Source: Planctomycetota bacterium | GTDB lineage: Bacteria > Planctomycetota > UBA8108 > SXIK01 | DNA length: 64,000 nt | NCBI GenBank assembly: GCA_965223845.1 | Contig: CBDCXR010000004.1 | Span: 1,408,001-1,472,000, forward strand | Reading direction: 5' to 3' | Part shown: piece by piece, positions 7,398-62,958 of the stretch | How positions within the stretch are numbered: position 1 is the stretch's first letter | Layout: every line of letters begins with the position of its first letter | The notes under the pieces: model-generated | What the model was told of the DNA's origin: nothing | Databases searched by the model: none | The model's input: the letters and a program-made list of their open reading frames with translations, nothing else | Made by a program: the position numbers and the translations under genes

Positions 7398-10300
7398 CCG
7401 ATCATCCCACGGAGTTCTACCCGGAAGACGAGGACGAGATCGATCGACTCGTCGCGGACTACGTCGACCGATTCAATCTCGGCGAGACGCTGACCGCGGA
7501 CCAAATCGTTGAGGAACACCCTCGCCTCGCGCCCGCGGTGATCACCCAACTCGCGACCTTTCTCGGCATCGACGGCGCAAACGAGTCGACCCATCTGCTG
7601 CGCGAAGTCGGCGACTTCAAACTGATCCGCCGCGTCGGAAGCGGCGGCATGGGAGTCGTCTACGAAGCGTGGGAAGAGTCTCTCGAGCGTAAAGTCGCCG
7701 TCAAATTGCTCCCGCCCGGCGCCGCGGCCAATGGGACGGTGTTCCGGCGCTTTCGCCGCGAAGCCCGAGCCGCCGGCCGACTCCACCACCAGAACATCGT
7801 TTCGGTCTACGCGATGGGGATCTCGCAAGGAACTCCCTACTATTCCATGGAGTTCGTGGAAGGCGAGACGCTCGCGGGGATTCTCACTCGACTCGGCGTT
7901 CCGGGCGATGCGCCACAAAGTTCGCCACCGAATCGGAGCGCAATGCTTGAAATCGTCGACTCTTTCCCACGGACGGCGGAGACCGCGCCCGCAGATCTCG
8001 ATTCGGCCAGCGATGCTGCCATCCGCGCCCATTTCGGACGCACCGTCGCGTCGGCGTTCGCCGAGGTGGCACGCGGGCTCCAGCACGCGCACGAATTCGG
8101 CATCGTTCACCGCGACATCAAGCCTTCCAACCTGATCCTCGAACGAAAAGTGTCTGCGGGTGACTCTCAGGGCGGACTGCGCATTCTCGACTTCGGTCTC
8201 GCGAGACTCGAGGGCGACGAAAGCCTAACCGTCGATGGTGCGTTTCTCGGGACGCCTCGGTACATGAGTCCCGAGCAGGCCCGAGCCGCAACCGGGCACG
8301 AAGTCGAGGTCGATCGACGCTCGGACGTGTACTCCCTCGGACTCTGCCTCTACGAGATGCTCTCGTTTCGCCACCCGTTTGGTCGGAGCGCGGGCCCGCG
8401 ACTCTACCGAGACGCGATCGAACGCGAGCCACCGTCTCTGGGTGCCGTCGTGCATCGCGACCTCGACGCGATCGTGGCTAAGTGTCTGCGCAAGGACCCT
8501 CGAGATCGCTACGCTTCCGCGGAGGCCCTCGCCCAAGACCTCGATCGATTCGTCCGGTGTCAGCCGATCGAGGCGAAGCCGCTACCGAAATGGCGACGCG
8601 GGATCCGCCGATTGTGGGTGGCCCGTCGGCGCCTCGCCGGCGTTGTCACGCTCATCGTCCTCGCTGCGGTCGGAGGCGCGGGCGTTATCCAGCTCCTTCA
8701 GCCCGCGGGAACGGTACGCACGCGTGTTTGGGAAGGAGACTCCCTCACCGGGTCCACCGAGATTTCGCACGACGGGCGGCGACTCGTCGCCGTCGACTGG
8801 ACCGATGGAAATCTCGTTGTTCGCGATCTCGAAACCGGATCCGATTGGACCGCGGTGACGGACAACGAGAACTGGGCGACTCTCACTCATTACGCCAACA
8901 GTCCGATCATCTCGCCCGACGGCACTCGGATTTGCTTTTGGTGGGAGCCGGTCCGTGACGGGCCGGGAGAGCTTCGAGTGGTTGACCTGGACGGCGAAGC
9001 TGAGAACGACGCCGCGCCGCGACGGATCGATCCGGGCGACGCGGTGTATTACCCGCGCGACTGGTCGGCGGACGGATCTCAAGTCTTACTCGAGCGGCAC
9101 GTCGTACCGGAGAACCGCGCCGGGGAGTCGACACTCTCGTTCGGTTTGTACTCGGCGTCTGAAGAATGGCGGTGCGACTTTGAGTGGAGAGCCACCGCTC
9201 ACACCTACGTGGGTGCCGCCCGACTCTCGCCCGACGGTGCCTGGGTCTTTCTTACGCGCGAGGAAGAAGCATCGCCCGGGCGACGCGACCTGGTCGCAGT
9301 CCACGTTCCGACGAAAGAGGTAGTTCCGGTTCTCGAAGGACGCAGCGACGACCGTTTGTCTGACATATCTCAGGATGGCCGGCACATCGTTTTCATCAGC
9401 GATCGCGGCGGGCAGAGCGGTCTTTGGACCGCGGAGTTCGAAGCCGGACAGCTCGTCGGCGAACCCCGGTGCGTCGAAGCGACATTCTTAGGGCGAAGCG
9501 TCGGCGTCACCGCTGACGGCGCTCTCTACTACTCGGAGAGCCTAGGCGGTTCCGACCTTCTCTTTGGCGAACTCGATGCGAGTTTCGAACTCCGAATGAC
9601 GGGCGTGAGACCGGGTTCTCATCGGTTCCGACGCCGCGTTTTTCAGCCGGCGTGGTCGCCCGACGGAGGGCGAGTCGCGTACCGAGTGGGTCAAATCGGG
9701 CGACTTGGACCCTGGAGTCGAGGCCCCTGGGAATTCATGTTGCTCGACGTGAAGACTCAGGTCGAAGAGTCGGTCCAGCCGATTCCTCCGTTTCCCCCGG
9801 TGTTTCGCGCGTCCGGCCCGCGTTGGTTAGACGATCAAACTCTAGTTTACTTGGACTTCCCGCAAACAGGTTCCGCTAGCCGCTTCTACGAAATCGACCT
9901 GGAGTCCCGGAAGCGACGCGTTGTCGCGGAGGTCGATTTGCGCATCCGCATGCACAATTTCTGTGTCGACCCCGTCCGCCGCTCGATCTGGTACTCGCAC
10001 CCAGCTATCGGGACCTTTTGTCTACCGACGGTCGAAGACTCGATTCAGAATCCCACGCTGGACCCCATCGCGATCTCGAAGCGCGCCGGAAAGTACCCTC
10101 GGCTCTCTCCGAATGGCGAGTGGCTCGCGCTCCAATCTGACGGATCCGTCCTTGTCTTTGCGGCCGACGGCAGCGACGACGAGCCGCGCGACACGTGGTC
10201 ACTCGGCGACGGTGACAATTCGAGCCATCGGATCTTTTCGTGGTGGGGGAACGAGCATCTCGTTCTTTTGACGGAAGATGAGTCCGTCTCCGCGCTCAAC

Positions 10301-48437: not shown

Positions 48438-49718
48438 GTGACGCTCCACGTCGACTCGGAGATCGGTACGCTGCGCGAGGTGCTCGTCCATCTTCCGGGC
48501 CCCGAGGTCGATTCGATGCCGCCGGAACTCATGGGCGAGTTTCTCTTCGATGACATTCTCTACGGACCGGGAGCGCGGAGCGAGCACGCGCGCTTCACCG
48601 CCGTGTTGCGCTGCCTTGGGGCGAAGGTGACGGATTTCTCCGATTTGCTCGTCGGCGCGCTCGAGCACGCCGGCGACGCTCGGCGCGAGCTCCTCGATAC
48701 GGTCGCTCGCTTCGAGGAGCTTCCGCGGAGCACCTCCGCCGAGCTCGCCGCGCTCGGCCCCTCCGAGCTCGCCGAAGTCCTCATCGCAGGGCAGCGCGTA
48801 GATCGACGGGATCTCTCGCCCGAGAATCTCTTCCGTATCCTTCCCGTGCCCAATCTTCTCTTCTCGCGCGACGCTCAGGTCGTCCTCGGCGACGGGGTCG
48901 TCATCAGCGGGATGAGTCGCCGCGCGCGCCAGCGCGAGGCCCTCCTGAGCCGCTTCGTCTTTACTCATCACCCGCGCTTCGGCCCCGAGACGATCCGGGC
49001 CGACTTCGCCGCACCGCTTCGGCGTGCGTCATCGCGGACGCCGGCCCTGCCGACGCTTGAGGGCGGAGACATCCTCGTCTTTCGCGAGGGTGTCGTCGTC
49101 GCCGGAGTGAGCGAGCGGACGATGGAGCGCGGCGTCGACCGCTTGACCGAGACTCTTCGCTCGCTCGACCGGTTTCGGGCGCTCGTCATGGTGCCGCTCC
49201 CGCGACAGCGGAGCGCGATGCACCTCGATACGATCTTCACGCGCACCTCCGAGGACGACTGTCTCGTCTACGCGCCGCTGATCCTTCCCGGTGGTCCGGA
49301 GACGTTGAGCGTCATCACGATCGACCTCGCCCGAGCGGGCGACTGGGGGCGACGGCGCCCGTCCCTCCTCGAGGCGCTGCGTGAGCTCGGCGTCGATCTC
49401 CGTCCGATCTCCTGCGGCGGCGAGGACGACTACATCCAGCAGGCCCGCGAGCAGTGGACGGACGGCGCGAACTCGTTCGCGCAGCGACCGGGCCTCGTCT
49501 ACCTCTACGCTCGCAACACCAGAACGGCCGAAGAACTGGAGAAGCGCGGGTACCACGTGCTTTCCGTCGACGAGATGGACTTCGGCCCCGACGGCGAGTG
49601 CCGGTACGCGTTCACCGAAGGGACGCGCTACGCGATCCTCGTCGCCGGCCACGAGCTCTCGCGGGCGCGCGGCGGTCCGCGCTGCATGACGATGCCGCTC
49701 GTTCGCGCGCCCGCGTGA
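48438..49718 (+). CDS. arcA: Arginine deiminase
   Basis: V.SEIG.LREVLVH.PG.E, LFDD, NLLFSRD, EGGD, MHLDT, ELSRARGGPRCMTMP. Confidence 0.92.
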   Translation: MTLHVDSEIGTLREVLVHLPGPEVDSMPPELMGEFLFDDILYGPGARSEHARFTAVLRCLGAKVTDFSDLLVGALEHAGDARRELLDTVARFEELPRSTSAELAALGPSELAEVLIAGQRVDRRDLSPENLFRILPVPNLLFSRDAQVVLGDGVVISGMSRRARQREALLSRFVFTHHPRFGPETIRADFAAPLRRASSRTPALPTLEGGDILVFREGVVVAGVSERTMERGVDRLTETLRSLDRFRALVMVPLPRQRSAMHLDTIFTRTSEDDCLVYAPLILPGGPETLSVITIDLARAGDWGRRRPSLLEALRELGVDLRPISCGGEDDYIQQAREQWTDGANSFAQRPGLVYLYARNTRTAEELEKRGYHVLSVDEMDFGPDGECRYAFTEGTRYAILVAGHELSRARGGPRCMTMPLVRAPA

Positions 49719-49775
49719 TCGCCGTTTCGGCCGCGGGAGAACGTCGCGCTCCTCACTGGTCGCCGGCCGATCGGG

Positions 49776-49784
49776 TGGTACAAT
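49776..49784 (+). promoter_or_regulatory. Extended -10 promoter of typA
   Basis: TGGTACAAT about 50-70 nt upstream of typA. Confidence 0.5.
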
Positions 49785-49832
49785 CCCCGGCTCCGCTTTT
49801 CTGGCCCCGGACGCACTGAGACCGACTTCGAC

Positions 49833-51689
49833 GTGACCACGACCCCTACCTCGAGCATGCAGCAGACTGGCACTCAGGCGATCCGCAACGTCGCCATCAT
49901 CGCCCACGTCGATCACGGGAAGACGACGCTCGTCGACCGCTTCCTCGCCGCCACCGGATCGATCCCGTCTCACCAGGATCTCGGCGAACGGATTCTCGAT
50001 TCGAACGACCTCGAGCGCGAGCGCGGGATCACGATCCTCGCGAAGAACATCTCGCTTTACTACCGGGACGCCAAGATCAACATCATCGATACGCCCGGGC
50101 ACGCGGACTTCGGCGGGGAAGTCGAACGCGTGCTCCAGATGGCCGACGGGGCGATCGTCCTCGTCGACGCGGCCGAGGGGCCGATGCCGCAGACGCGCTT
50201 CGTCCTGCGAAAGGCGTTCGAGCAAAAGCTCGTGCCGGTCGTCGTCGTGAACAAGATCGACCGGAAGGACGCGCGTGCGGACGAAGTCGTCCACGAGATC
50301 GGCGATCTCTTTCTCGAACTCGCCGAAGAGGTGGACGTCGGCGACGAGCTCGACGTCCTCGACTTCCCGGTCGTCTACGCTTCGGCGCGCGAAGGTTACG
50401 CGGCATCGGAGCCGAACGGCGAGAGAGCGGGTGTCGAGCTCATCCTCGACCTCGTTCTCGATCGCGTACCCGCGCCGACCGATTCGGCGGACGGTCCGCT
50501 CGCGTTTCAGGTGACGACGCTCGACTACAGCGACTACGTCGGTCGGATCGGGATCGGTCGCGTCTACGGCGGCCGGCTCGAGAACGGGGCGCGCGTCCTC
50601 GTCTGCGGGCGAGACGGTGACCGGTCGGCGCGAGTCAAGGAGCTCTATCTCTTCGACAAGCTCGGCAAGATCGGGATTCCGTCGGTCGCCGCCGGCGACA
50701 TCTGTGCCGTGACGGGGATCGACGACCTCCAGATCGGCGAGACGCTCACCGATCCCGAGCATCCGGTTCGCCGCCCGTTCACCGAGGTCGATCGCCCGAC
50801 CGTTTCGATGCTGTTTTGCGTGAACGACAGTCCGTTCGCGGGGCAGGACGGGCGCTTCGTGACCTCGCGTCAGCTTCGCGCGCGGCTCTTCAAGGAGCTC
50901 GAGGCGAACGTCGCGCTCCGTGTCGAGGACACGTCCGACGCGGGCGTGTTCGAGGTCTCCGGGCGCGGAACTCTTCACCTCGGCATCCTCATCGAGACGA
51001 TGCGCCGCGAAGGCTACGAATTCCAGGTCGGCAAGCCGACGGTGATTCTCCGCGAAGAGCAGGGCGTTCGCCTCGAACCGGTCGAGCACCTCGTCGTTCA
51101 GACTCCGGAGAGCTCCGCCGGGAAAGTGATCGAGCTCATCGGTGCACGGCGAGGCGAGATGACTCGCTACGAGCCGCAGGGAGAACGGATGCTCATCGAG
51201 TTCCGGGTGCCTGCGCGCGGCCTCATCGGAATCGGGTCTCGCCTGATGACTCTCACCGCGGGCGAGGCCGTCGTGTTTCACAGCTTCTCGGGCTACGAGC
51301 CGTACAAGGGCTCGGTGCCGGGGCGGACGCAGGGAGTGATGGTCTCGAGTGAAAGTGGAGCGGCGATTCCGTACGCACTCTTCAGTCTGCGGGACCGCGG
51401 CCCGTTTTTCATCGAGCCCAATCAGCCCGTCTACAAGGGCATGGTCGTCGGCGAGCACTGTAAGGAAGACGACATCACGGTGAATGTCTGCCGTACGAAG
51501 AAGCTGACGAACATCCGCGCCGCGGGCTCCGACAAGAATGTGATCCTCTCGCCTCCGCGGCAGATGTCGATCGAGGAGGCGCTCGAGTACATCGAGGAAG
51601 ATGAGCTTCTCGAAGTGACGCCCAAGATCTACCGCCTCCGGAAGAAAGCCCTCGACCCGAAGGCGCGTCGGCGCGAATCGCGGCGCTGA
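49833..51689 (+). CDS. typA: Translational GTPase TypA/BipA (start may be ATG 49857)
   Basis: [54 protein letters not shown]. Confidence 0.98.
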
Positions 51690-52147
51690 GGTGCCGCTAA
51701 GGCCTTCGGATTCGCCGAGGTCCGCGGGCGGAGAGGTCGAGGCGACCTCGGCGTCCGGGTCGTCGCGCGACTAGCTGGCGGGGGTGGACTCTGGTCGTCG
51801 ACCGTCGGCGCCGGGGACGCCGACGTTACGCGCGGGCGTTCATCTTGAACGTCTCACCTCTAGCCGCGGTACTCCCCCCGCGTCGGATCGGCGTTCGAGA
51901 CCGGCTCCCAAGCGGCTCTGCGAACGGTTGTCGCTCGTCATTCTCGTCCCGACGCGGGCGCGCCGGTCGTGTCGAGCTCTGCGCGAGGAGAGGACTTACG
52001 ACTCGAGGCGGCAACGGGAGCGCTTCGCTCTATAATGATCCAGCGCGCGAGCGGCAAAGGGTGACATCGCCGGGACCGGTGGGTTCCGCCGATGGGGAGT
52101 GCTAGAGCTCGTCCCTTCTCGGGTTCGAGCCAGAGAAGGAGAGGGTC

Positions 52148-55100
52148 ATGGCATCACGCTGCATGCGGAGCCGATGTCGTGCGCGCGGAGTCCGTGTGCG
52201 CACGTCTCGGGTGCGACGATCGATCCCCGTACGGGGGAGACGGGGGCCATCCCGCGGGGAAGTCGCGAAGCTTGTTTTCGCGGGTCTTGTCGCCGGTTGC
52301 TTCGTGCTCGCTCCCGAGCGCGAAGTGCGTGCGCAGGACCGCGAGGCGACGCTTCGCTTCAACACCGCCGGCCGGCTCTACCGGCAGGAGAACTGGGCGG
52401 AAGCGCGGGTCGCGTTCGACGAGTTTCTCACCAAGTTCGGCCGTCACGAGAAGGCCGGAGAAGCGCGATTCGCTCGCGGCTACTGTCATCTCCGCCTCGA
52501 GCGGTACGCCGACGCCGTGCGCGACTTCGATTCGGCGGTGCGGGCACCGAACGCGTCGGGGTCGGCTTGGTTCGCGGACGCGTACTTCTACGCGGGGGAG
52601 GCCCGGGACGCGCTCGCTGCGAGCGGAGACGCCGATTCGGCCCGGCGCGCAGCGTTGCTGCGGGCGGCGGCGAAGAGCTATGGCGAGGCCGCCGCCGTTT
52701 GGGATCGGGTGAATTCGTCCGACTCGCGCGAGCGAGCTCGGGTGACGAGCCGGCGCGCGAGCGCGCTCGCCGCGCAGGGGGAGGCGCTCTATCACGCCGG
52801 CGACATCGCGCGGGCCCGGGAGACTCTGAAACCGTTTCTCGACGACGTCCGTGCGGGCGGTCGCCCCGCGCGATCGGCGGTTGGAGACGCGCAGGGGCGC
52901 GCTCTCTACTTCTTGGCCCTCGCCGAGTACTCGGGCGCGCGCGGGACGGAGCGGCCGAATTACACCGTCGCTCTTGCGGCGCTGAGTGTGCTGACCGAGG
53001 CCGGTCGCGAGCGGACGCCACTTTGGGAGGAGGCGGCCTTTCTCGCGGCGCAGATTCACGCGCTTGCGGGCGATCGTGACCGCGCACTCGCACTCTACGG
53101 CCGTGTTGTCGAGCGCAGGGGGCCGCGAGCCGAAGAGGCTGGCTATCGCCTCGCTCTCACTCGCTACGACTCGGGCACGCGAACGGATCTCCAGGCGGCG
53201 GCGAAGAGACTCTCCGAGTTTCGGCAGCGCTCGCCGGACCATCCGCTCGCGATCGAGGCACTCCACTTCGAAGGCTTGGCGCTGTTTCGTCTTCAGCGGT
53301 TCGAGGAAGCGGCCGAGCGTCTTTCCGATCTCGTCTCCGACGGGGCGACTCCGAAGGCGATCCGCGCGTCGGCGGGCTTGACACTCGGGCAGGCGCTTCT
53401 CCTCGCGCGGAAGGCGGATCCCGCGCGGGCGGAAAAAGTGCTCGATCGAGCGGCTCGGGACGCTCCGCCCGGCTCGAAAGAGCACGCTCAGATTTCCTTC
53501 TGGCGCGGGGAAGCACTGCTCGCCGTGAACGACGTCGATTCGGCGCGAGCCGCAGCGAGGGTGCTCGGTGCCGTCGCTGCTTCGGCTCGAACGGTCTCGC
53601 CCCGCATCGCCGAGGAGGCCTTGTTCAAGCAGGCGGAAGCGGCGTACCGCGCGGGCGAACACGCCGAGTGCGCGGCGCTAGGAGAGCGCTACCGGCGTGC
53701 GTATCCGCGCGCTCGCGCGCGGTTCTACGTCGAGTCGCTGAAGCTGTCTGGCCAGAACGCACTCTACGCGCCAGAGGATGCACTCGCCGATTCTGTCCGC
53801 GCCGTCGCCGCCGAGCATTACGAGGAGGCCGCGGCGCTCATCGACGATCCGGCCCAGGCGGCCGAGCTCCGGTATTTCGCGGGCATAGCACACTACCGCG
53901 CCGGAAAGTTCACTCAGGCGGCCGAGACGTTGGCCGGCGTCGATCGCGCGCGCGCGGATCTCGAACGAGAACCGGCAGCGTTCGCTGAGCTCGGCTTCTA
54001 CCTCGCGGATTCGCTCGCTCAAATCCCGCGCCGGTCGCCGCCGAGTCCGGAGGACGTCGCGCGTGCGGAAACCGCCGCGAAGCGATTCGAGGATTACCTT
54101 CGCGTGCCGAATCGGCAGCATGCCGAAACCGCACGGGTGCAGCAGGGCCTCCTCTACGAAGAGCTCGGGCAGATCGATCGGGCGCGCGATGCGTATCGGC
54201 GATTTCTCGCCGACCACCCGCGCAGCGAACGGGCGGCGACGATCCGCTTCGCTCTCGCCGACGCGCACCTAGCGCTCGAGGAGTTCGAGCGCGCTGCGGA
54301 AGCCTACCGCGTCGCCGCCGAGAGCGGCGGCGAGCCGGCGCTGCGCGCCCGCGCGTATCTCCAAGCCGCGACTCTCGAGCGGCGTCTTTCGCGCGGAACC
54401 GAGGCGCTCGCGCTGATCGAGCGGGCGTCGGCGCTCGCGCGCGACCTCGGACGAGTCGCGGGGGACGGACTGCGCGCTCGGATCGCGTTCGACCGAGCAT
54501 CGACGCTGCTCGACCTCGGACGCGACGCCGACGCAAAGACCGCCTACGCGCGCTACTTGAAAGAGTACGCCGGCGGCGAGCACGAATCCGAGTGCCGCGT
54601 GCAGCTCGGCTATCTCCACGTCGAGGCCGGCGACGGAGACGAGGCGATGCGCGTTGTCGAGCCGCTCGTGCGCGGACCTAAATCGGATGAACGCCGCCCC
54701 GACGCTCTCTATGTTCGTGCCTGGGCACTGAGTGACGCTGCGGCGGCGAGCGGCGACCCAAAGGTCGCGACCGCACTCGATCGACGCCGGGAGGCGGACT
54801 ATCAAACGATTCTTCGCGATCATCCCAGAGCGAAGATCGCGAGCGAGGCGCGGCTCGAGCTGGCTCAGCTCTTCTTCAACCGCGGCGAGTGGGACGTCGC
54901 GAAGCGCGAGTTTGGCCGCGTTGTCGAAGCGTTCGAGTCGGAGGACGCGACGCCGCGCCCCGATCTCCACCTTCAGGGCCAGCTCGGCCTCGCGTTCGTT
55001 CACTTTCAGACCGAGGACTATTCTTCGGCGCGTTCGCTGTTCGATCGCGTCGCCGGAGCGGCCGAAGACGACGCGGAGCTGCTCGTCCGCGCGACGTTCT

Positions 55101-55690
55101 ACGCGGGCCGCTCGTGGATGCTCAGCCGCGGGGTCCGGCAGGCGCGGCGCCGCTTCGAGCGTGTCGTCGGGGAGCTCAAGGAGAGCGCCGGCGAGCTCCT
55201 CGAGGAAGCGCTCCTCCGGCTCGGCGAGTGCTGTCACCGCGTCGAGGACTACACGGCGGCGGCCAAAACGTACCGGCGGCAGCTCGACGAGATCCCGGAC
55301 GGCCGGCGACGCCACGAAGCGCGCTTCGGGCTCGGACTCGCGTACCAGTTCCTCGATCGCCCGGATGATGCCGTCGAGCTCTTCACGGAAGTCACCCGCG
55401 CGACCACCGCGCCGATCGCCGCGCGGGCGCAGTATCACATCGGTGAGTGCTACATGGACGGCGAGAAGCACCGCGAAGCTGCGCGGGCGTTTCTGGCGGT
55501 AGTAGCGAGTTTCGACTTCGAAGGCGACTACCGTCCGTGGCTCCGCCGCGCACTTCTCGCCGCCGGAATCGCCTACGCCGCGGCGGGTGACTCCGCCGCG
55601 GCGGAAACACAGTGGAAGGAACTCGTCGCGCGCTTCCCGGGCTCGGACGAAGCAGCGGCGGCTAAGACAAGACTGGAGGAGGTGAAGTGA
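52148..55690 (+). CDS. Large exported tetratricopeptide-repeat protein
   Basis: GAAGGAG RBS; signal-like segment ending VRAQ; continuous TPR-like repeats (e.g. YRRFLADHPRS, ARFPGS..A..A..RL). Confidence 0.88.
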   Translation: MASRCMRSRCRARGVRVRTSRVRRSIPVRGRRGPSRGEVAKLVFAGLVAGCFVLAPEREVRAQDREATLRFNTAGRLYRQENWAEARVAFDEFLTKFGRHEKAGEARFARGYCHLRLERYADAVRDFDSAVRAPNASGSAWFADAYFYAGEARDALAASGDADSARRAALLRAAAKSYGEAAAVWDRVNSSDSRERARVTSRRASALAAQGEALYHAGDIARARETLKPFLDDVRAGGRPARSAVGDAQGRALYFLALAEYSGARGTERPNYTVALAALSVLTEAGRERTPLWEEAAFLAAQIHALAGDRDRALALYGRVVERRGPRAEEAGYRLALTRYDSGTRTDLQAAAKRLSEFRQRSPDHPLAIEALHFEGLALFRLQRFEEAAERLSDLVSDGATPKAIRASAGLTLGQALLLARKADPARAEKVLDRAARDAPPGSKEHAQISFWRGEALLAVNDVDSARAAARVLGAVAASARTVSPRIAEEALFKQAEAAYRAGEHAECAALGERYRRAYPRARARFYVESLKLSGQNALYAPEDALADSVRAVAAEHYEEAAALIDDPAQAAELRYFAGIAHYRAGKFTQAAETLAGVDRARADLEREPAAFAELGFYLADSLAQIPRRSPPSPEDVARAETAAKRFEDYLRVPNRQHAETARVQQGLLYEELGQIDRARDAYRRFLADHPRSERAATIRFALADAHLALEEFERAAEAYRVAAESGGEPALRARAYLQAATLERRLSRGTEALALIERASALARDLGRVAGDGLRARIAFDRASTLLDLGRDADAKTAYARYLKEYAGGEHESECRVQLGYLHVEAGDGDEAMRVVEPLVRGPKSDERRPDALYVRAWALSDAAAASGDPKVATALDRRREADYQTILRDHPRAKIASEARLELAQLFFNRGEWDVAKREFGRVVEAFESEDATPRPDLHLQGQLGLAFVHFQTEDYSSARSLFDRVAGAAEDDAELLVRATFYAGRSWMLSRGVRQARRRFERVVGELKESAGELLEEALLRLGECCHRVEDYTAAAKTYRRQLDEIPDGRRRHEARFGLGLAYQFLDRPDDAVELFTEVTRATTAPIAARAQYHIGECYMDGEKHREAARAFLAVVASFDFEGDYRPWLRRALLAAGIAYAAAGDSAAAETQWKELVARFPGSDEAAAAKTRLEEVK

Positions 55691-56523
55691 TGATTCGATC
55701 CCAGAAGCAGTCGAAGCGAATGTCGAGCGGTGCGCGAACGGCCATCGTCGCCACCTCACTCGTTCTCGTCGCGGCGCTCGGGCTGCAGGTCCGCGCCCAA
55801 GTCGAGACTGAATCGGCACCGGCCGAGAGCGCCGCTTCTGCCACTCGAGTTCCTCCGCCTCCGCCAGCGGGAACAATCCTCCCGACCGAGGAACACCCCG
55901 AGTCGTATCTCGAATTCGCACTCGCGGGCGGCTACCTGATGATTCCGATCGCGCTCCTCAGCGTCGTATGGCTGACGTTTCTGATCGAGCGGCTCACGGC
56001 GCTCCGCCGCGCGCGGGTGTTTCCGCGGGCGCTCGCGTCCGATCTCTCGATGCTCCAGCCGGGCAAGACGGACGGAGACGCGGTCGAGCGCATCCTCACC
56101 GAGCGGGATTCGAGTTGCGCGCGGATCGTTCGGACGGCAGCGAAGCACCTCGGTTCCGATCGCGAGAACATCGAGTTCTACGTCAACGATGCCGCGCAGC
56201 GCGAGGTCCACAAGCTGCGCCGATTCATCGGCGTCTTCGCCGTGATCGCCTCGGTGGCGCCGCTACTCGGACTCCTCGGGACGGTGACGGGAATGATTCA
56301 GGCGTTCCGCGAGGTGGCGCTCGAAGGACTCGGCTCCGGTCAAGCGCTCGCGCCGGGAATCTACCAGGCACTCGTCACGACCGCCGCGGGACTCATCGTC
56401 GCGATTCCTGCGCTCGTGACCTACCACTGGCTTCACTCGCGCATCGATAACTACCTTCATTCGATCAACGCGCTCGTCGTCGATTTCGTCGAAGCCCGCG
56501 GGCTCAGAGGAGCGGCGTCATGA
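55687..56523 (+). CDS. exbB: MotA/TolQ/ExbB proton channel protein with N-terminal signal
   Basis: GGYLMIPI; APLLGLLGTVTGMIQAF; GIYQALVTTAAGLIVAIPA. Confidence 0.93.
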   Translation: MMIRSQKQSKRMSSGARTAIVATSLVLVAALGLQVRAQVETESAPAESAASATRVPPPPPAGTILPTEEHPESYLEFALAGGYLMIPIALLSVVWLTFLIERLTALRRARVFPRALASDLSMLQPGKTDGDAVERILTERDSSCARIVRTAAKHLGSDRENIEFYVNDAAQREVHKLRRFIGVFAVIASVAPLLGLLGTVTGMIQAFREVALEGLGSGQALAPGIYQALVTTAAGLIVAIPALVTYHWLHSRIDNYLHSINALVVDFVEARGLRGAAS

Positions 56524-56942
56524 TTCACATCGAATCGCAGCGCGAGCGACTTCAGCTCAATATGGCGCCGATGGTCGACATGATTTTCCTCCTCGTGATC
56601 TTCTTCCTCACGACGACGTCCTTCACGGACAAGGAGCGTGAGCAGGACGTCTTGCTGCCGGCGAATCGAACGCCGGGGAGTCTCAGCCGGAACGCCGACA
56701 ATCACCTCATCGTCAACGTCCTCGCTGAAGGCGGCGTACGAGTCTACGGCGACGACGTCGACCGAACCGAGCTCGCGGCGATCATTCGCGAGCGACGCGA
56801 GCGTGCGCGGCGCCCGCTGAAGGTGCAGGTGCGCGCTGATCGCCGCGCGGCTTACGGTCACGTCGCTCTCGCGCTCGAGTCGATCGAGCGGGGCGGTGTC
56901 GCCCGGCCGTACATCGTGACGAAGCTCGTCGAGCTCGAATGA
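56520..56942 (+). CDS. exbD: ExbD/TolR protein
   Basis: NMAPMVDMIFLLVIFF with the essential Asp; VRAD. Confidence 0.93.
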   Translation: MIHIESQRERLQLNMAPMVDMIFLLVIFFLTTTSFTDKEREQDVLLPANRTPGSLSRNADNHLIVNVLAEGGVRVYGDDVDRTELAAIIRERRERARRPLKVQVRADRRAAYGHVALALESIERGGVARPYIVTKLVELE

Positions 56943-57035
56943 GCGGCGAGCGCGGCCGCGTGGAGCGCCGCGGTCGCCGTAGTGCACTCCGTCGGGCGAA
57001 CGGGAAGACGTCGAGCGAGAAGACGAGGGACGAAC

Positions 57036-60000
57036 ATGGGCTCAGATCGAAAAAGTACGCAGCGAAGCAGGAACGGGTCGCGAATTCGGTGGGGGTGGCT
57101 CGGCATCGCCGCGATCGCCGTCGCGGTGGCGCTCCCGTTTATCGTCCACCGAACGATGTCGTACTACACCGATGGTGACCGACTGCGGGAGGACGCGGAC
57201 CTCGCCGAAGATGCACTGCGATCGATCCTCTGGGAACCGTCGCGTCCCCTCGAGCCGCTCCTCAGCTCACCCCAATCCGACGAGTACGAACCGCGGGTGA
57301 GTCCATTCGGCGACGAGTTGATCTTCACTCGCCGGCGTCCGGGCCAGAACGCCGATCTTTGGTCGAGCGTGCGGCGACGCGGACGCTGGATGGAGCCGCG
57401 TCCAGTCGACGGCGTGAACACCGATGCGGACGAGCTCGGCGCCGCGTTTAGCGCCGACGGCGAACGCCTCTACTTCTACTCGAACCGCGAGGGTGGACTC
57501 GGCGGCTACGACATCTGGTCCAGCCGGCGAGAAGATGACGGAAGCTGGGGGCCTGCGACCAATCTCGGTCCCGCGGTCAACTCACCGTGGAACGAGATGA
57601 GCCCGGCTCCCGATGATCGCCGCCGGCGTCTCTTCTTTACGAGCGACCGCCGTGCGGGCGCCGAAACCTCGCCGCCGTGGACCGCGACGATTCGCGCGCG
57701 CCTGAACGCCGCGGAATACGACATCTACGTCGCCAGGCGTCCGAACGAGTCGACAGCGGACGGCGGAGGTGGAAACTCCGCCGATGAAACGGATGCGAGC
57801 GAACTCGCGTTCGCGCCGGCCGAGCCGTTCTCCGCGCTCAACCGTCCCGGCTCCGCCGAAGGCGCCGTCGCCGTGTCGCCGCTCGACGATTTTCTCTACT
57901 TCTCGAGCAATCGACACGGCGGAGAGGGCGGATTCGACCTCTACCGCGTGCGGATCAACCGCGAAGAGCCCGGTCCGATCGAGTCTCTGGGGCCGCAGGT
58001 GAACACGACGTCGGACGAGATCGATCCCGCGCTCGCCACCGGCGGCTACGAGCTCTACTTCGCGCGGGCCGTCGACGGTCAGGAGGATCTCTTCGTCTCG
58101 CTCTCCCGCGAGGTCTACATGGACCGAGAGAGCGGAGATCCGTACTGGAGCATCGGTGCGGTGCTGCGATTCCTCTCTGAGCTCTTGCGTCTAATTCCTT
58201 TCGATGTTCTCGCGTTTCTCGTTTGTCTCCTCCTCGCCGCGCTACTCTACGCGCTCGTTCGAAAGCTCCTCCGGCGACCGAGTCTTCTTCTGCGTGCGCT
58301 CTTGGTTGCGGTCCTTCTGCACCTGTGCACGGCGCTTTGGATGCACCGACACGATGTCGAGCGCATGCTCTTCGACGGTGTCGCCGATGAGGAAGAGTTC
58401 GACGCGTTCGAGGTCACGGTCGAGGGGCTGCCCGAAGAGTCGGTCGGAGTCGCGATCCGCGAAGCGACGGCGAGTCCTCTCGAATCGGAGGAGCACGTCG
58501 CGCTCGCACTCTCTCGCGAACGTCCGGAGGAAGCGGACCGTGAAGCGGCCGAAGGAAGCACTCCGGAACCGCTCGCTCCGGAGTTCACCGCAGGCGAAGT
58601 GCGAGATCTTCCCCCGCCCGAATTCGCGGCGACTGCGCTCGCGGACGCCGAGCTTCCCGACGCGCCGCTTCGCGGTTCCGAACCTCGGAGTGACATCGCC
58701 GCCGCGGCCGAAGACGACGCGGCGCCCGAGATCGCGGCGCAATCGGTCACGCCAGAAGAGTCGGCGGCGCCGGCGTCTGTCACTCGACTCGAGTCGCCGA
58801 GCCGCCGGTCGGTACGGGATCGAACGTCGGGTGAGGGGGTGGGGGAAGAGTTCGCGCCCCTTGCGGTCGAAGTGAACATCGCCGCTCGTTCGGCCCCCGA
58901 AGGCGCGCCGCGCGCTACCGTTCCGCGTGCCTCGCCGTCCGTAGCTACCCGGGCGACCGCTCCGCCCGACGTGTCCACCGCAACCGCACCGCCTCGCCGA
59001 AGCCGAAGCGAAGCTCCGTCGCCGCCTTCCCCGATCGCGAGCGTCGCCCCCCGGCCGGGCCCCGCTCCGACAGCGAGCGCGCCGCGACTCGAGTCCCGTC
59101 GACGCGGCGTCCGGCGAGACGCGGAGGACGAGCGACCGCGGGCGCTCGATTCGCTGGCTCCCCGCCTCGAGCGCCGCGAGGACGCGCGACAGCGCTTGCC
59201 CCGGGCCGCGGACTTGCCGCGCGTCGCGCGAAGGCTCGACGAACGGTCGAGAGCGGAAGCCGCGTCGCAGGCTGCCTCCGCGCTCGAGCGCGCGCCTTCG
59301 AGGCGCGATCGCGTAGAGCTCGCGGTGCCCTCTTCGCCGAGCACGGTTCGCACGGAGCCCGCACCGACGCTCACCCGCGAAACCCTCGCTCGTACGGAAG
59401 AAGACACGCTTCCCAGCACCCCGAAGGGGAGTGAGGTCGCCGCTCGCGACGAGGGAGCGACCGTCGCCAGCGCGAGAGCGGCGGAGTCGAATCCGTCAAG
59501 TCAGGTGAAACTTCGGCGTGATCGTCGACGCCGGGCCTCGCGGGACCCGCACCGGGAACTGCGCAGCCTCGGTGTGCGCGCGCGAACGGCCACCGCCCCT
59601 CTCGATCGGTCGAAGCCGGCACCGGCGACGTCCCGCGAAGAGCTCGCGGCCAAGGTGGAGCTGCCGAAGCCGAGTGCGAGCGTCGCGACTCCGATCGTCA
59701 CTCGCATCCGACCCGCCGAACCGGAGCGAGAGCGTCCGCAGATCTACGAGCTGAGAGCGAAGGATCGGCGCGAAACGGCACTCGCTCGCGGGGGTGGGAG
59801 TGAACGGACCGAGCGCGCAGTGGAGGACGGGCTCGATTGGCTCGTTCGACACCAATCGCCCGATGGCCGGTGGCGACTCGATCGCTACACCGATCATCTG
59901 CCTTCGACGTCTCTCCGCGATCTTCAGCACCCCGGATGGAACGGCCGCGGGCGGACGTCGAGTCGCGGCGGGCGCGGAAAGGCTGCGAAGGGCGACGCCG

Positions 60001-60887
60001 CAGCGACCGGACTCGCTCTCCTCGCCTTTCTCGGTCACGGCGATTCGCACCTCGAAGTCGGGCCGCGTCGAGAGGCCGTCGCACGCGGACTAGCATGGCT
60101 GCTCCGCGTCCAGCGCCCGAACGGCGACCTCCGCGGCGGCGGCAACCTCTACGTCCACGGAATCGCCGCGTTCGCGCTCTGCGAGGCGTACGCATTCACG
60201 CGCGACCCGAATCTTCGCGATCCGGCGCAGCGAGCGATTGACTTTACGGTTGCGAGTCAGCATCCCGGGAAGGGAGGGTGGCGTTACGAGCCACACCCCC
60301 GGAGCGGAGAGGTCGACACGAGCGTCTTCGGTTGGATGCTGATGGCACTGAAGAGCGGACGGCTCGGTGGCCTCGACGTCGATGACGACTGCTTGCGCCG
60401 AGGGGCGGCGTATCTCGACAGTGTGCGCTTTGGGCGCGCGGGAGGACGCTATCGCTATCAACCGGGAAGGACGCGATCATCCCTCGCGATGACGGCTCAG
60501 GGGTATTTCTCGCATCTCATGCTCGCCGACACGCTGCTCGAGGGCGAGAGCCGATCGGCCGAAGCGATCCTTCGCGCCGAGAGGGAATCCGCCGAATTTC
60601 TCGTCCAGAACCTGCCGCGCGCAGAGGACATGGAAGGCGTCAACTTCTACTACTGGTACTACGCGACGCTCGCGATGTTCCAAACCGGCGGTGAACCGTG
60701 GCGCGTTTGGAACGAAAACCTGACGCGCGTACTCCTCGAGCACCAGGTTGGGGACGAGCACGGGTCGGCGCACGGGAGTTGGGATCCTCGCGGCTACCGC
60801 GCGGAGATCGGCGGGCGCGTGTACTCGACGGCGCTCAGTATTCTCTGTCTGGAGGTCTACTACCGGTACGCTCGACTCGAGCGCTGA
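57036..60887 (+). CDS. Multidomain membrane protein: TM + PD40 propeller + 2 TM + long low-complexity linker + prenyltransferase/squalene-cyclase-like toroid
   Basis: PD40 repeats (FSADGERLYFYSNREGGLGGYDIW, NLGPAVNS); TM AVLLH; Ala/Pro/Glu/Arg-rich linker; GLDWLVRHQSPDGRW, GGWRY, YYWYY, GGRVYSTALSILCLEVYYRY. Confidence 0.85.
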   Translation: MGSDRKSTQRSRNGSRIRWGWLGIAAIAVAVALPFIVHRTMSYYTDGDRLREDADLAEDALRSILWEPSRPLEPLLSSPQSDEYEPRVSPFGDELIFTRRRPGQNADLWSSVRRRGRWMEPRPVDGVNTDADELGAAFSADGERLYFYSNREGGLGGYDIWSSRREDDGSWGPATNLGPAVNSPWNEMSPAPDDRRRRLFFTSDRRAGAETSPPWTATIRARLNAAEYDIYVARRPNESTADGGGGNSADETDASELAFAPAEPFSALNRPGSAEGAVAVSPLDDFLYFSSNRHGGEGGFDLYRVRINREEPGPIESLGPQVNTTSDEIDPALATGGYELYFARAVDGQEDLFVSLSREVYMDRESGDPYWSIGAVLRFLSELLRLIPFDVLAFLVCLLLAALLYALVRKLLRRPSLLLRALLVAVLLHLCTALWMHRHDVERMLFDGVADEEEFDAFEVTVEGLPEESVGVAIREATASPLESEEHVALALSRERPEEADREAAEGSTPEPLAPEFTAGEVRDLPPPEFAATALADAELPDAPLRGSEPRSDIAAAAEDDAAPEIAAQSVTPEESAAPASVTRLESPSRRSVRDRTSGEGVGEEFAPLAVEVNIAARSAPEGAPRATVPRASPSVATRATAPPDVSTATAPPRRSRSEAPSPPSPIASVAPRPGPAPTASAPRLESRRRGVRRDAEDERPRALDSLAPRLERREDARQRLPRAADLPRVARRLDERSRAEAASQAASALERAPSRRDRVELAVPSSPSTVRTEPAPTLTRETLARTEEDTLPSTPKGSEVAARDEGATVASARAAESNPSSQVKLRRDRRRRASRDPHRELRSLGVRARTATAPLDRSKPAPATSREELAAKVELPKPSASVATPIVTRIRPAEPERERPQIYELRAKDRRETALARGGGSERTERAVEDGLDWLVRHQSPDGRWRLDRYTDHLPSTSLRDLQHPGWNGRGRTSSRGGRGKAAKGDAAATGLALLAFLGHGDSHLEVGPRREAVARGLAWLLRVQRPNGDLRGGGNLYVHGIAAFALCEAYAFTRDPNLRDPAQRAIDFTVASQHPGKGGWRYEPHPRSGEVDTSVFGWMLMALKSGRLGGLDVDDDCLRRGAAYLDSVRFGRAGGRYRYQPGRTRSSLAMTAQGYFSHLMLADTLLEGESRSAEAILRAERESAEFLVQNLPRAEDMEGVNFYYWYYATLAMFQTGGEPWRVWNENLTRVLLEHQVGDEHGSAHGSWDPRGYRAEIGGRVYSTALSILCLEVYYRYARLER

Positions 60888-61053
60888 CCGAGTCTCGTTT
60901 TTGGCCGCGCCCGAGTTCTCGACTCCGAACCCGGACCCGCGGCTCGACTCGAATCCGAACGCCGACGACCTCGGCAGAGCGAGTCGAAATCGCGACCGAG
61001 CGGATCGCGCCCTCTCGCGGCCGAGCCGGAATCGCCGGAAGGCCCGCGCTCGC

Positions 61054-62958
61054 CTAGAAGCGCCGGCGCCGCGGTGCGCGCGAACCGAGCCAGCCTTCGC
61101 GCCGCTCCGCTGCGTCGGCATCGAGAACCTTGCCGCGGGCTTCGAAGGTCACGAGTTCGAGGCGGGGATCTTCGGCGAGAACGATCTCCCCCGAGCGGCG
61201 CTCGCCGCGCTGAACGAACTCTATGGGGATGCGATCTCCCGGTGAGCGCTCGGCGACGAGGTCACGGAGCGCGTCGGGATCCTTCACGGAAGTCCCGCCG
61301 GCGCGGACGATCGTGTCTCCTCGTTCGACGCCCGCACGATAGAGAGGAGACCCGACGCGAGTTGCGCTGAGGACGCGGAGTCCGTCATCCGCGGCGTCGA
61401 GCCGGGCGAAACCGATGAATGCGCGTCCGGCGTGTCGTCTCCCGAGCTCGAGCCCGAAGGCCGCGAGGAGAGGAGTGTAGTCGATCACTTCACGGCCGTA
61501 CACGAAGCGCGCGAAGAATCGTTTGGCAAAGGTCGAATCGCCCGTCAGCTCGCCGAGGATCCGTTCGAGGTCTTCGTTTCGGTACGGGATCTCCTCGACG
61601 CCGTGCTTCCGCCACACCGCGCGCAGATAGGCGTCGAGCGTCGCCGGGGCGTGCTCCGTTCGAAGGAGGAGATCGAGTCCCAGCGCGATCGCCGCGCCGT
61701 GCGTGTAGTACGAAAGAAACGTGTTCACAAAATTGTGCCGATCGATCGAAGTCGCAGCATCGACCAGCGGCGCCTGGAGACTCATTTCGACGGCGGAATG
61801 GTAGCGCGTCGCGGGGGAGAGGAGGACTCGCTCGATGGTCCGTCCGAAGCTCGCTGCGAGCGCGTCGAGCGACAGTTGGCCGGCGCGGTGTGCGGTCAGT
61901 CGATCGAAGTAGCTCGTGAATCCCTCGGCGAACCAGAGCTCTCCGCAGGGGTTGGCGCGCTCGAAGCGAAAGGGCTCGATCGAGGCCGGACGGATGCGCT
62001 CGACGTTCCACGCATGAAAGAATTCGTGAGAGAGCGTGAGGAGAAGCTGCGCCGCGTTTCCTTCGAGCGGTCGGCTGCTCGTGAGGATCGTCGAGTTGCG
62101 ATGCTCCATGCCGTCGCCGCTCGCGTAGGGATGGTAGTCGGCGATGAAGGTGTACCGCCCTCCCTCGAAGCGCGGGAGCTCGCCGAAGATCGCGATCTGC
62201 TCACGGACGACGGCCTCTGCCGCGCGAGCGTAGTCGACGACCGCCTGCGGTGTGCCGGGATGGTGCACGGCGAGACGGATTTCCTGTCGGTTGTCGCCCT
62301 CTCCTGCGTGAAACGAGTGCACATGGTGCGCACTCACTTCGGTGGGGCTATCGAGAAAGTAGTCGAGGTCGGGGGCCGTGAAGACTTCCGGATCGCCGGT
62401 GGGGAGAAGCTGCGTGGCGACTCGCCACTCGGGAACCGGACGGCGAAAGCGAATCCGTATCGCGCGCTCTTCCGTGCCTCCGATCCATGCGAACGTGGCG
62501 GGCATGTTGAGATGCGCGTGATTCGAGTCGATCGCGGCGTACGTGCCGTCGCAGCGATCGCCGAAGAGCGTGTAGCGAACCGTTAGCGTGCCGTCATGAC
62601 CGCCGGCTATCGTCCAGCGGTAAGTTCCGTCGCGCGTGACGGCGAGCGGTCGATCGTTGCCGTCGGTCGCCCTCACCGAGTACACGTTCTTCACGAATTC
62701 GTGGAGCGCGTAGCGTCCGGGTGAGCTTCGGCTCATGTGAAGCTTTGCCGGCCCCTCCGGAAGCGCGCTCACGCGAATCGCGACCTCTGCTTCGTGGTGG
62801 GCGCGATTCGGAAAGGCGATCGAGTATTCGATCGGCTCCGAGGCGAGCAGCGAGGGAGCGATCAGTGCCGCCAGCGCAGTCGCCCATCGCACGACCGCTC
62901 GGGGCCGATGGGGGCGCCTCTCGCACGGAGGCTGGAGTCGATTCGGTAGGCGAGACAT
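61054..62958 (-). CDS. M61 family glycyl aminopeptidase with C-terminal PDZ
   Basis: SPGRY, LDSP, GMEHRNST, HEFFHAWN, WFAEGFTSY, SYY, PDZ GSP..AGV..GD. Confidence 0.92.
   Translation of the reverse strand: MSRLPNRLQPPCERRPHRPRAVVRWATALAALIAPSLLASEPIEYSIAFPNRAHHEAEVAIRVSALPEGPAKLHMSRSSPGRYALHEFVKNVYSVRATDGNDRPLAVTRDGTYRWTIAGGHDGTLTVRYTLFGDRCDGTYAAIDSNHAHLNMPATFAWIGGTEERAIRIRFRRPVPEWRVATQLLPTGDPEVFTAPDLDYFLDSPTEVSAHHVHSFHAGEGDNRQEIRLAVHHPGTPQAVVDYARAAEAVVREQIAIFGELPRFEGGRYTFIADYHPYASGDGMEHRNSTILTSSRPLEGNAAQLLLTLSHEFFHAWNVERIRPASIEPFRFERANPCGELWFAEGFTSYFDRLTAHRAGQLSLDALAASFGRTIERVLLSPATRYHSAVEMSLQAPLVDAATSIDRHNFVNTFLSYYTHGAAIALGLDLLLRTEHAPATLDAYLRAVWRKHGVEEIPYRNEDLERILGELTGDSTFAKRFFARFVYGREVIDYTPLLAAFGLELGRRHAGRAFIGFARLDAADDGLRVLSATRVGSPLYRAGVERGDTIVRAGGTSVKDPDALRDLVAERSPGDRIPIEFVQRGERRSGEIVLAEDPRLELVTFEARGKVLDADAAERREGWLGSRAPRRRRF

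Follow-up and report, generated by a model that had tools for sequence, protein, structure and literature searches.

What does a motor of the ExbB/ExbD type drive when the long gene beside it encodes neither a TonB nor a TolA head? The question is raised by four genes in a stretch of 64,000 nt from a Planctomycetota bacterium (G000:C4:1408001-1472000, on contig C4 of the assembly), hereafter the window, to whose positions all coordinates refer unless contig C4 or a locus number (L) is given. The genes encode a giant tetratricopeptide repeat (TPR) protein, ExbB- and ExbD-like motor subunits, and a membrane protein that ends in an (alpha/alpha)6 toroid. With a probability of roughly 0.7, we regard them as a module for a trans-periplasmic force transducer of the Ton/Tol type, driven by the proton motive force and fitted with a noncanonical head. 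Gene content, domain folds, a conserved His and conserved synteny are documented here; coupling to the motor, topology, delivery of force and a role in the envelope are proposed. A preliminary description of this DNA had put forward a motor-coupled transducer with a toroid head and a TPR partner, which the His, topology and linkage results support; its anatomy was incomplete, as a propeller and two transmembrane (TM) helices were missing from it.

Organization of the cluster

Four open reading frames (ORFs) form a compact cluster on one strand, as follows.

52148..55690, + strand: giant TPR protein, 1180 aa (ORF, translation; Pfam TPR_16 at 1.8e-35 and other TPR families; NCBIfam TIGR02795)
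55687..56523, + strand: ExbB/TolQ-like motor subunit, 278 aa with the GTG start at 55687, 277 aa with ATG 55690 (PF01618, 1.7e-32)
56520..56942, + strand: ExbD/TolR-like motor subunit, 140 aa (PF02472, 8.3e-21; codon of TM Asp20 at 56577-56579)
56982..60887, + strand: putative transducer gene, 1301 aa from GTG 56982 or 1283 aa from ATG 57036 (ORF, translation, database match)

This is the gene set first described, with a fourth protein of about 1280 aa; the ORFs are real, and Pfam agrees for the first three. The exbB and exbD genes share an ATGA at 56520-56523 and overlap by 4 bp, as had been noticed. A 4-bp overlap had also been given for the TPR gene and exbB. It holds for the GTG start at 55687 but shrinks to 1 bp with ATG 55690, which sits 9 nt after a GGAGG and is better placed. 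Because the genes overlap, translational coupling of the TPR gene, exbB and exbD is suggested. The fourth gene likely starts at ATG 57036, where a database protein of 1283 aa that is 100% identical to the fourth ORF begins.

The motor pair and the TPR protein

The second and third genes place a channel-domain A subunit and a B subunit side by side, the arrangement of the MotA/ExbB/TolQ-ExbD/TolR motor family. The ExbB-like protein scores 112.3 bits with PF01618 (MotA_ExbB; cut-off, 22.9), and the ExbD-like protein 74.8 bits with PF02472 (ExbD; cut-off, 25.4). The TM Asp of the latter, D20, is invariant in all 34 aligned syntenic ExbD sequences, the window's included, and corresponds to the conserved proton-binding Asp of this family of 5:2 motors. 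Among the NCBIfam models, the ExbB-like subunit scores higher with TolQ (TIGR02796; 89.8 bits against an equivalog cut-off of 221) than with ExbB (71.9 bits), both values being far under the equivalog cut-offs. The ExbD-like subunit likewise scores higher with TolR (TIGR02801; 46.6 bits against an equivalog cut-off of 127.3) than with ExbD_1 (24.6 bits).

The TPR protein matches TIGR02795 (tol_pal_ybgF) at 1.5e-56, with 190.1 bits against a cut-off of 90.1, a score summed over seven stretches of a 1180-aa protein that is about 10 times the length of the 119-position model. Its repeats resemble the TPR unit of CpoB/YbgF. Signal-peptide-like N termini are found in the 36 long ORFs among homologous TPR genes, and the protein is predicted to be secreted by means of a Sec-type signal peptide and to serve as a periplasmic scaffold. 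The string L-V-A-G-C near residue 50 was considered as the lipobox of a lipoprotein and rejected: such a string is present in only one of the 36 long homologues, and the N termini are Sec-like.

Architecture and predicted topology of the fourth protein

The preliminary description overlooked residues 1 to 433 of the fourth protein, which hold TM1, a PD40 propeller and TM2. Three stretches, 37-55, 404-422 and 434-452, scored as TM helices in a hydropathy scan, and the complete order is TM1, propeller, TM2, His helix (TM3), a linker rich in Ala, Arg, Glu and Pro, and the toroid. TM1 and TM2 precede the His helix, which makes it the third to cross the membrane rather than a lone anchor at the N terminus.

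57090..57146, + strand: TM helix 1, residues 37-55, predicted N-in (hydropathy scan)
57150..58190, + strand: predicted periplasmic PD40 beta-propeller, residues 57-403, five PD40-like repeats (Pfam PD40 at 3.7e-16, model)
58191..58247, + strand: TM helix 2, residues 404-422, predicted out-to-in, followed by the putative cytoplasmic loop YALVRKLLRRP (hydropathy scan)
58281..58337, + strand: TM helix 3, residues 434-452, predicted in-to-out, with the motif A443-x3-H447 (hydropathy scan, alignment; His codon at 58320-58322)
58407..58460, + strand: candidate motor box, strand-like FEVTV (476-480) and VGVAIR (488-493) (column counts of alignment A1, described below)
58461..59693, + strand: low-complexity linker rich in Ala, Arg, Glu, Pro and Ser (composition)
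59694..60884, + strand: (alpha/alpha)6 toroid head with QW-like repeats (SQHop_cyclase_C at 5.5e-06, borderline; profile, model, fold matches)

Charged residues are distributed unevenly around the helices, with six K+R against one D+E before TM1 (residues 19-36), four against none in the TM2-TM3 loop, and two against seven after TM3. These positive-inside counts fit an N-in topology, for which reason the propeller, the linker and the toroid would lie in the periplasm. The toroid had been expected outside the cytoplasm, and this is where the counts put both it and the linker. The shorter toroid paralogues of the same genome begin with signal-peptide-like leaders.

The structure predicted for the propeller from an alignment of 23 sequences is a confident beta-propeller (predicted local distance difference test [pLDDT], 83.9; predicted TM-score [pTM], 0.82). 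Foldseek ranked TolB chains in places 1 to 17, the best being 1c5k (2.3e-11; TM-score, 0.47). VIA-align, which compares geometry only, assigned its highest ranks to five-bladed propellers of glycosidases (Z 19-20, with some 235-260 residues aligned) and gave Z 16.9 for TolB 1c5k (215 aligned, 19% identity). Partial NCBIfam matches at residues 105-362 are to CHU_0125 (3e-34; 118.5 against 620 bits) and PorE (9.5e-31; 106.7 against 600 bits); the Pfam scan of the protein gave no OmpA match, and it is not a full-length member of the PorE/CHU_0125 family. A TolB orthologue was considered for the propeller and rejected, as VIA-align puts glycosidase propellers higher and no TolB model is listed in the NCBIfam scan of the protein. 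Foldseek, VIA-align and the sub-cut-off NCBIfam matches combined argue for a predicted PD40 propeller of the TolB/PorE kind that is not a TolB orthologue.

A conserved His helix and a candidate motor box

The TM helix that had been likened to the S-x3-H coupling helix of TonB and TolA, with Ala in place of Ser, was found as described: LLVAVLLHLCTAL spans residues 440-452, with a His codon that begins at 58320. H447 is invariant in all 45 full-length homologues with a PD40 propeller and a toroid (alignment A1), whereas position -4 is taken by Ser (26) or Ala (19). Loss of this His among homologues would have spoken against the proposal; all 45 keep it. In the toroid family at large, 95 of 104 matches from the protein search carry a His-centered hydrophobic helix, with Ser (61), Ala (23), Cys (6), Gly (2) or another residue (3) at position -4, and the nine without one include short and differently built proteins. 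As a rough background, a central His occurs in 62 of 2,500 hydrophobic 19-mers (2.5%) from the long ORFs of the genome, whose own TonB_C proteins have S-x3-H helices. In the main text of PMC12204202, SHLS is given as the motor-binding motif of transducer TM helices. Of its S-x3-H part, the window keeps the His and has Ala for Ser.

Beyond the His helix, alignment A1 shows columns with the pattern [VF][AE][VL][STA][LSV], then a segment [LVI]xx[QA][IL]R in which Arg493 is present in 36 of 45 sequences. A motor box, or D-box, is described for TonB (PMC12204202, PMC10907165), and the position of the conserved segment suits it. A complex predicted from two ExbD periplasmic domains and residues 436-505 (numbering of the 1283-aa form) reached an ipSAE score of 0.57, compared with 0.11 for the best of three controls. 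Of 80 solved complexes, 58 attain the mark set for this score, as do 2 of 110 mismatched pairs, and values up to 0.60 account for 7 of the 80 as well as both passing mismatches. At least 44% of contacts agreed between runs, with a partner pLDDT of at least 41. Because solved TonB D-box/ExbD complexes exist, the score may reflect likeness to those structures. The prediction therefore lends weak support to binding of the putative motor box by the ExbD periplasmic dimer.

Linker and toroid head

The linker of about 470 aa rich in Ala, Pro, Glu and Arg that was first reported corresponds well to the 460 residues from 459 to 918 (A, 18%; R, 14%; E, 12%; P, 12%; S, 10%). Across the 45 homologues, the distance from the His to the toroid is 342-1239 residues, with a median of 532.

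The toroid was aligned in 40 sequences, L007 being left out for two stop codons in its translation. The model of the C-terminal 397 residues built on this alignment (pLDDT, 87; pTM, 0.88) is an (alpha/alpha)6 barrel. Its best match is 8paj_A, a squalene-hopene cyclase (SHC)-like chain (Z 24.8; root mean square deviation, 3.2; 288 aligned), followed by SHC 1gsz_A (Z 24.4), cellobiose 2-epimerase (Z 23.1), and AprG, GH76 and others (Z 21-22); the top Foldseek match is AprG (2.7e-06). The 40-sequence profile matches SHC chains at 7.3e-16 through the QW-like repeats, with SHC residues 397-563 aligned. The toroid thus shares with SHC and the class II terpene cyclases an (alpha/alpha)6 barrel with QW repeats. 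Its score with TIGR01507 is 24.2 bits against a cut-off of 431.1, and the ESM Atlas matches are only Planctomycetota clusters that are unnamed or labeled SQHop_cyclase_C.

DxDD is the catalytic motif of class II terpene cyclases. The toroid had been described as lacking it, which is correct for the family but not to the letter: the string DVDD, the sole D.DD string in the toroid, stands at residues 1132-1135 (60375-60386). Its columns are unconserved, the third position being Pro in 30 and Asp in 5 of the 40 sequences, and the family therefore has no conserved DxDD. Thirty columns are invariant, many of them aromatic, together with E1068, R1101, D1112, E1291 and R1295; several of these residues are altered in more distant soluble paralogues. 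The idea that D1112, which lies in a conserved DTSVxGW, aligns with the catalytic acid of the cyclases found no support. The profile hidden Markov model aligns this motif to SHC residues of about 553-560, and the aligned SHC span of 397-563 presumably excludes the catalytic site.

Some family members combine the toroid with other domains. P0092 (1837 aa) joins it to a BlaR1-like M56 peptidase, VWA_3 and five CarboxypepD_reg domains, and P0087 (1031 aa) joins it to a Ser/Thr protein kinase. In P0021 and P0025, a CarboxypepD_reg domain follows the toroid.

Linkage to the motor genes across genomes

One genome per species was scanned, which gave 514 confirmed toroid-family stretches. The best 80 were kept as loci, and their six-frame ORFs were searched with the TPR, ExbB and ExbD sequences of the window and then with profiles made from the first matches. 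Upstream sequence of 600 bp or more before the toroid gene exists for 66 loci; in 52 of them an ExbD gene is the immediate upstream neighbor, in the same orientation, so that the linkage to exbBD on which the original proposal depended is conserved. At least 5.5 kb of upstream sequence was available in 54 loci; ExbD and ExbB are both present in 43 of these, and ExbD, ExbB and TPR genes in the order of the window in 37. For loci of the PD40 type with upstream sequence, ExbD is linked in 21 of 21. As related genomes are not independent, these fractions describe the linkage and do not test it. The 14 unlinked toroid genes are mostly short (about 520-690 aa), and some still encode a His helix.

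The loci come from Phycisphaerae, Planctomycetia, Pirellulales, Kuenenia, Sumerlaeia, Akkermansiaceae, Victivallales and Kiritimatiellia, and toroid-family matches were obtained in all 41 sampled relatives. Clustering of the neighbors of 56 module loci revealed no conserved gene family for a TonB-dependent receptor or other outer-membrane protein. In 14 of the 56, all of the Phycisphaerae type, a BlaI-like repressor (Penicillinase_R, about 1e-31 to 1e-30) and a BlaR1-like M56 membrane protein of about 1000 aa are encoded directly upstream of the TPR gene, both on its strand. Examples are L004:1858-5333, L008:1513-5129 and L040:1829-5196, with 11 more; the small gene clustered in nine. Inspection of both loci revealed no such pair beside the window module or its paralogue in the same genome.

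Other motor and toroid loci in the genome

The assembly (7.93 Mb, 91.7% complete) contains six MotA_ExbB matches in five loci, the first of them in the window. The second locus is another full module, on the minus strand (L084:2971-11865 = C4:2010970-2019865), with TPR (1169 aa), ExbB (335 aa), ExbD (137 aa) and PD40-toroid (1310 aa) genes. Both of its junctions are 4-bp overlaps, and its helix reads A-x3-H. The fourth and fifth loci are canonical ExbBD-TonB_C loci; TonB_C genes number three genome-wide.

The third motor locus, also on the minus strand (L085:4525-10495 = C4:2740525-2746495), encodes a small TPR protein, ExbB and two ExbD proteins and, after them, a protein of 906 aa that combines TPR, STN and Secretin domains; upstream is a 1003-aa protein without a Pfam match. 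A motor adjoining a secretin is unusual.

Three toroid proteins of 537-599 aa have a single N-terminal S-x3-H TM helix and no adjacent ExbBD. They are encoded at C4:3402641-3404368 and 3404599-3406212 (a tandem pair, L086) and at C4:1087719-1089518. These proteins look like sharers of motors, as multiple TonBs are.

No TonB_C, Pal or TonB-dependent receptor had been noticed in the window, and the three TonB_C, two weak Pal-like and five Plug-domain receptor matches of the genome indeed all lie outside it. Genome-wide, the best TolB score (TIGR02800) is 79.9 bits against a cut-off of 343.15, at other loci, and the best Pal score (TIGR02802) is 42.8 bits against 125.35; since the genome is 91.7% complete, the absence of TolB and Pal is not certain.

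Comparison with known systems

The module resembles TonB and TolA systems in its adjacent ExbB/ExbD-type motor genes, in an in-to-out helix with an invariant His and Ser or Ala at -4, and in a long Pro-rich, low-complexity periplasmic linker that ends in a globular C-terminal head. It differs in the head, an (alpha/alpha)6 toroid instead of TonB_C or TolA domain III; in the coupling helix, which is the third and stands behind a membrane-anchored PD40 propeller, with Ala for Ser in the window copy; and in the linker of 342-1239 residues. The Pfam scan gave no match to TonB_C (PF03544) at E<=0.01 in the fourth protein and none to the VWA family, and the general NCBIfam scan gave no TolA model at E<=0.01, TolA_C not being searched separately.

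With Tol-Pal, the module shares CpoB-like TPR repeats, TolQ- and TolR-like subunits, a TolA-like helix and linker, and a PD40 propeller. Unlike Tol-Pal, it has neither Pal nor TolA domain III, its propeller is fused to the transducer, apparently has five repeats and lacks the TolB N-terminal domain, and the equivalog cut-offs are all missed except by the repeat-summed ybgF score. The PorE/CHU_0125 family comprises envelope proteins of Bacteroidota made of TPR, a PD40 propeller, CarboxypepD_reg and OmpA_C. The partial PD40 matches, the TPR partner and the CarboxypepD_reg domains of homologues such as P0021 and P0025 recall this family, whereas the module protein lacks OmpA_C and is predicted to be anchored in the inner membrane and linked to a motor rather than an outer-membrane lipoprotein. 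PorE itself is proposed in the main text of PMC12204202 to be a fused CpoB-TolB-Pal. The toroid has the fold and QW-like repeats of SHC and other (alpha/alpha)6 barrels; unlike class II terpene cyclases, it is a single barrel and not two, is predicted to be periplasmic, lacks a conserved DxDD and sits on a TonB-like tether.

To our knowledge, only TonB_C and TolA domain III are established as heads of motor-coupled periplasmic force transducers. A vWA (von Willebrand factor A) head was proposed in 2025: the main text of Williams-Jones et al. 2025 (PMC12204202) reports transducers that carry this head behind an SHLS helix and a linker without ordered structure, and that are encoded after TPR-tolQ-tolR genes in bacteria of the Planctomycetes-Verrucomicrobia-Chlamydiae (PVC) group. 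The present module likewise has a non-TonB head, an SHLS-type helix and a disordered linker downstream of TPR and tolQ/tolR-like genes in PVC bacteria, and it differs in its toroid head, its single tolR-like gene (against a heterologous pair) and its fused propeller. The preliminary description had called it a distinct class; the toroid head and the fused propeller are new, but the concept has this precedent. The main text of PMC12204202 does not contain the terms prenyltransferase, squalene, toroid or PD40. Full-text literature searches and passages of PMC12505986 and PMC10632474 yielded no toroid-headed or PD40-fused transducer, and the main text of PMC10632474, on essential genes of P. limnophila, has no mention of Tol, MotA, biopolymer, prenyltransferase or tetratricopeptide.

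Proposed mechanism and alternative readings

In the mechanism that we propose, the proton-driven ExbB/ExbD motor of the inner membrane would engage the Ala/Ser-x3-His face of TM3 in the 1283-aa protein, and the strand-like segment just past the membrane may contact the ExbD periplasmic domains. The work of the motor would travel along a very long, disordered tether rich in Ala, Pro, Glu and Arg to the C-terminal (alpha/alpha)6 toroid, which would bind a ligand, probably a glycan or a lipid-linked component, in or close to the cell wall or outer membrane. The five-repeat PD40 propeller, held at the surface of the inner membrane between TM1 and TM2, and the secreted giant TPR protein would be periplasmic partners.

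Several points weigh against a force transducer. The matches to TolQ, TolR, TolB and PorE are all well below the curated cut-offs. The topology rests on hydropathy and charge counts and not on a dedicated predictor, and the His helix, unlike that of TonB and TolA, is the third of three TM helices and has Ala, not Ser, at position -4 in the window. The propeller is geometrically closer to five-bladed glycosidase propellers (Z 19-20) than to six-bladed TolB (Z 16.9), and the ExbD/motor-box prediction is weak, with low confidence for the partner. As 14 of the 66 testable loci have a toroid gene without adjacent ExbD, the toroid family is not strictly motor-bound. A linker of 342-1239 residues is far longer than those of TonB and TolA, and the passage of force along it is hard to picture. 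Finally, the fold is common to terpene cyclases, GH76, epimerases and AprG, and the head may thus be enzymatic.

As to what such a transducer would do, we lean weakly toward envelope maintenance or tethering over nutrient import, for three reasons. The parts resemble Tol-Pal (a ybgF-like TPR protein, TolQ over ExbB and TolR over ExbD scores, and a PD40 propeller); canonical ExbBD-TonB loci already exist elsewhere in the genome, in which no TolB or Pal exceeds its cut-off; and no outer-membrane receptor gene is conserved among the neighbors of the 56 module loci. The blaI/blaR1 neighbors and the fusions of the toroid to M56 and kinase proteins would suit a ligand-binding module under envelope-linked control.

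Planctomycetota and their relatives have no recognizable Tol-Pal, many lack FtsZ, and their periplasms are enlarged. A tentative, rather unlikely extension of the envelope reading would make the module the PVC counterpart of Tol-Pal. In this proton-driven machine, a fused TolB- and TolA-like protein would send a tether several hundred residues long across the unusually wide planctomycete periplasm, and its ring, of terpene-cyclase origin, would grip a glycan of the cell wall or outer membrane, thereby coupling both membranes during growth and during budding or division without FtsZ; the toroid paralogues that lack a motor would serve as other heads on the same motors, in the manner of TonB paralogues.

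The nearest rival is a system for the uptake of nutrients or macromolecules, the latter a suggestion of the preliminary description, in which the toroid acts as TonB_C does and exerts its pull on a channel in the outer membrane or on a polymer that it has captured. The logic of motor, helix and linker is the same as in TonB, the fold is found in many carbohydrate-active enzymes and binders, and the several motor-less S-x3-H toroid paralogues recall TonB paralogues that share motors. We nevertheless consider uptake unlikely, because no receptor gene family is conserved beside the 56 module loci and none is present in the window, because two canonical ExbBD-TonB_C loci and five Plug-domain receptors already exist elsewhere in the genome, and because the accessory parts, the CpoB-like TPR protein and the PD40 propeller, are Tol-like rather than Ton-like.

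The toroid might instead be a membrane-tethered periplasmic enzyme acting on wall or envelope polymers (a glycan hydrolase, lyase or epimerase, or a terpenoid- or lipid-modifying enzyme) that the motor positions or gates. Its nearest folds are enzymes, from the SHC-like chains at Z 24.8 and 24.4 and the epimerase at 23.1 to AprG, GH76 and others at 21-22, and E1068, D1112, E1291 and several Trp and Tyr residues are invariant in 40 of 40 sequences, some of them changing in the distant soluble paralogues. However, no one enzyme family stands out among the fold matches, the only DxDD-like string (DVDD, 1132-1135) is unconserved, and the profile alignment to SHC is limited to chain residues 397-563, in the QW-repeat regions. 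The fusions to sensor-type proteins (BlaR1-like M56 in P0092, Ser/Thr kinase in P0087) suit a binding module, and a catalytic head seems to us decidedly improbable.

Envelope-stress signaling, in which the toroid would sense an envelope ligand and the motor-coupled protein relay the signal without mechanical work, is very improbable: the BlaI/BlaR1-like pair directly upstream in 14 of 56 loci, all of the Phycisphaerae type, and the M56 and kinase fusions of the toroid speak for it, but the window module and its in-genome paralogue have no such pair, the pair is more simply the regulator of the operon, and the cytoplasmic part of the transducer amounts to an N terminus of 18-36 residues and an 11-residue loop, with no output domain.

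If the force-transducer reading is true, a further unrelated head would make the ExbBD/TolQR motor a general power socket for varied periplasmic tools. A terpene-cyclase-like toroid head family is widespread, with matches in 41 of 41 sampled relatives and at least 514 confirmed stretches in species-representative genomes. New here are the toroid head and the fused propeller; the kind of machine is known. The module is widespread in PVC bacteria and is a candidate for how Planctomycetota and their relatives energize outer-envelope processes. Mutations could be aimed at the conserved His, at the ExbD Asp and at those acidic and aromatic residues that are invariant in the toroid.

Flanking genes and minor observations

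A scan of 51500-61300 for promoters and terminators returned no promoter-like site (0.4 in shuffles) and four terminator-like sites (6.1 in shuffles). Upstream, on the same strand, an arginine deiminase gene and typA/bipA lie within 48438-51689, typA/bipA occupying 49833-51689; downstream, a convergent gene at 61054-62958 encodes an M61 glycyl aminopeptidase with a PDZ domain. With typA/bipA on one side and the convergent peptidase gene on the other, the unit consists of the four genes described. The arginine deiminase, typA/bipA and the M61 peptidase have no evident link to the module. A weak TolB-propeller-like match (22.7 bits) is located at 9203-9451 (C4:1417203-1417451), inside an open frame of 1022 aa.

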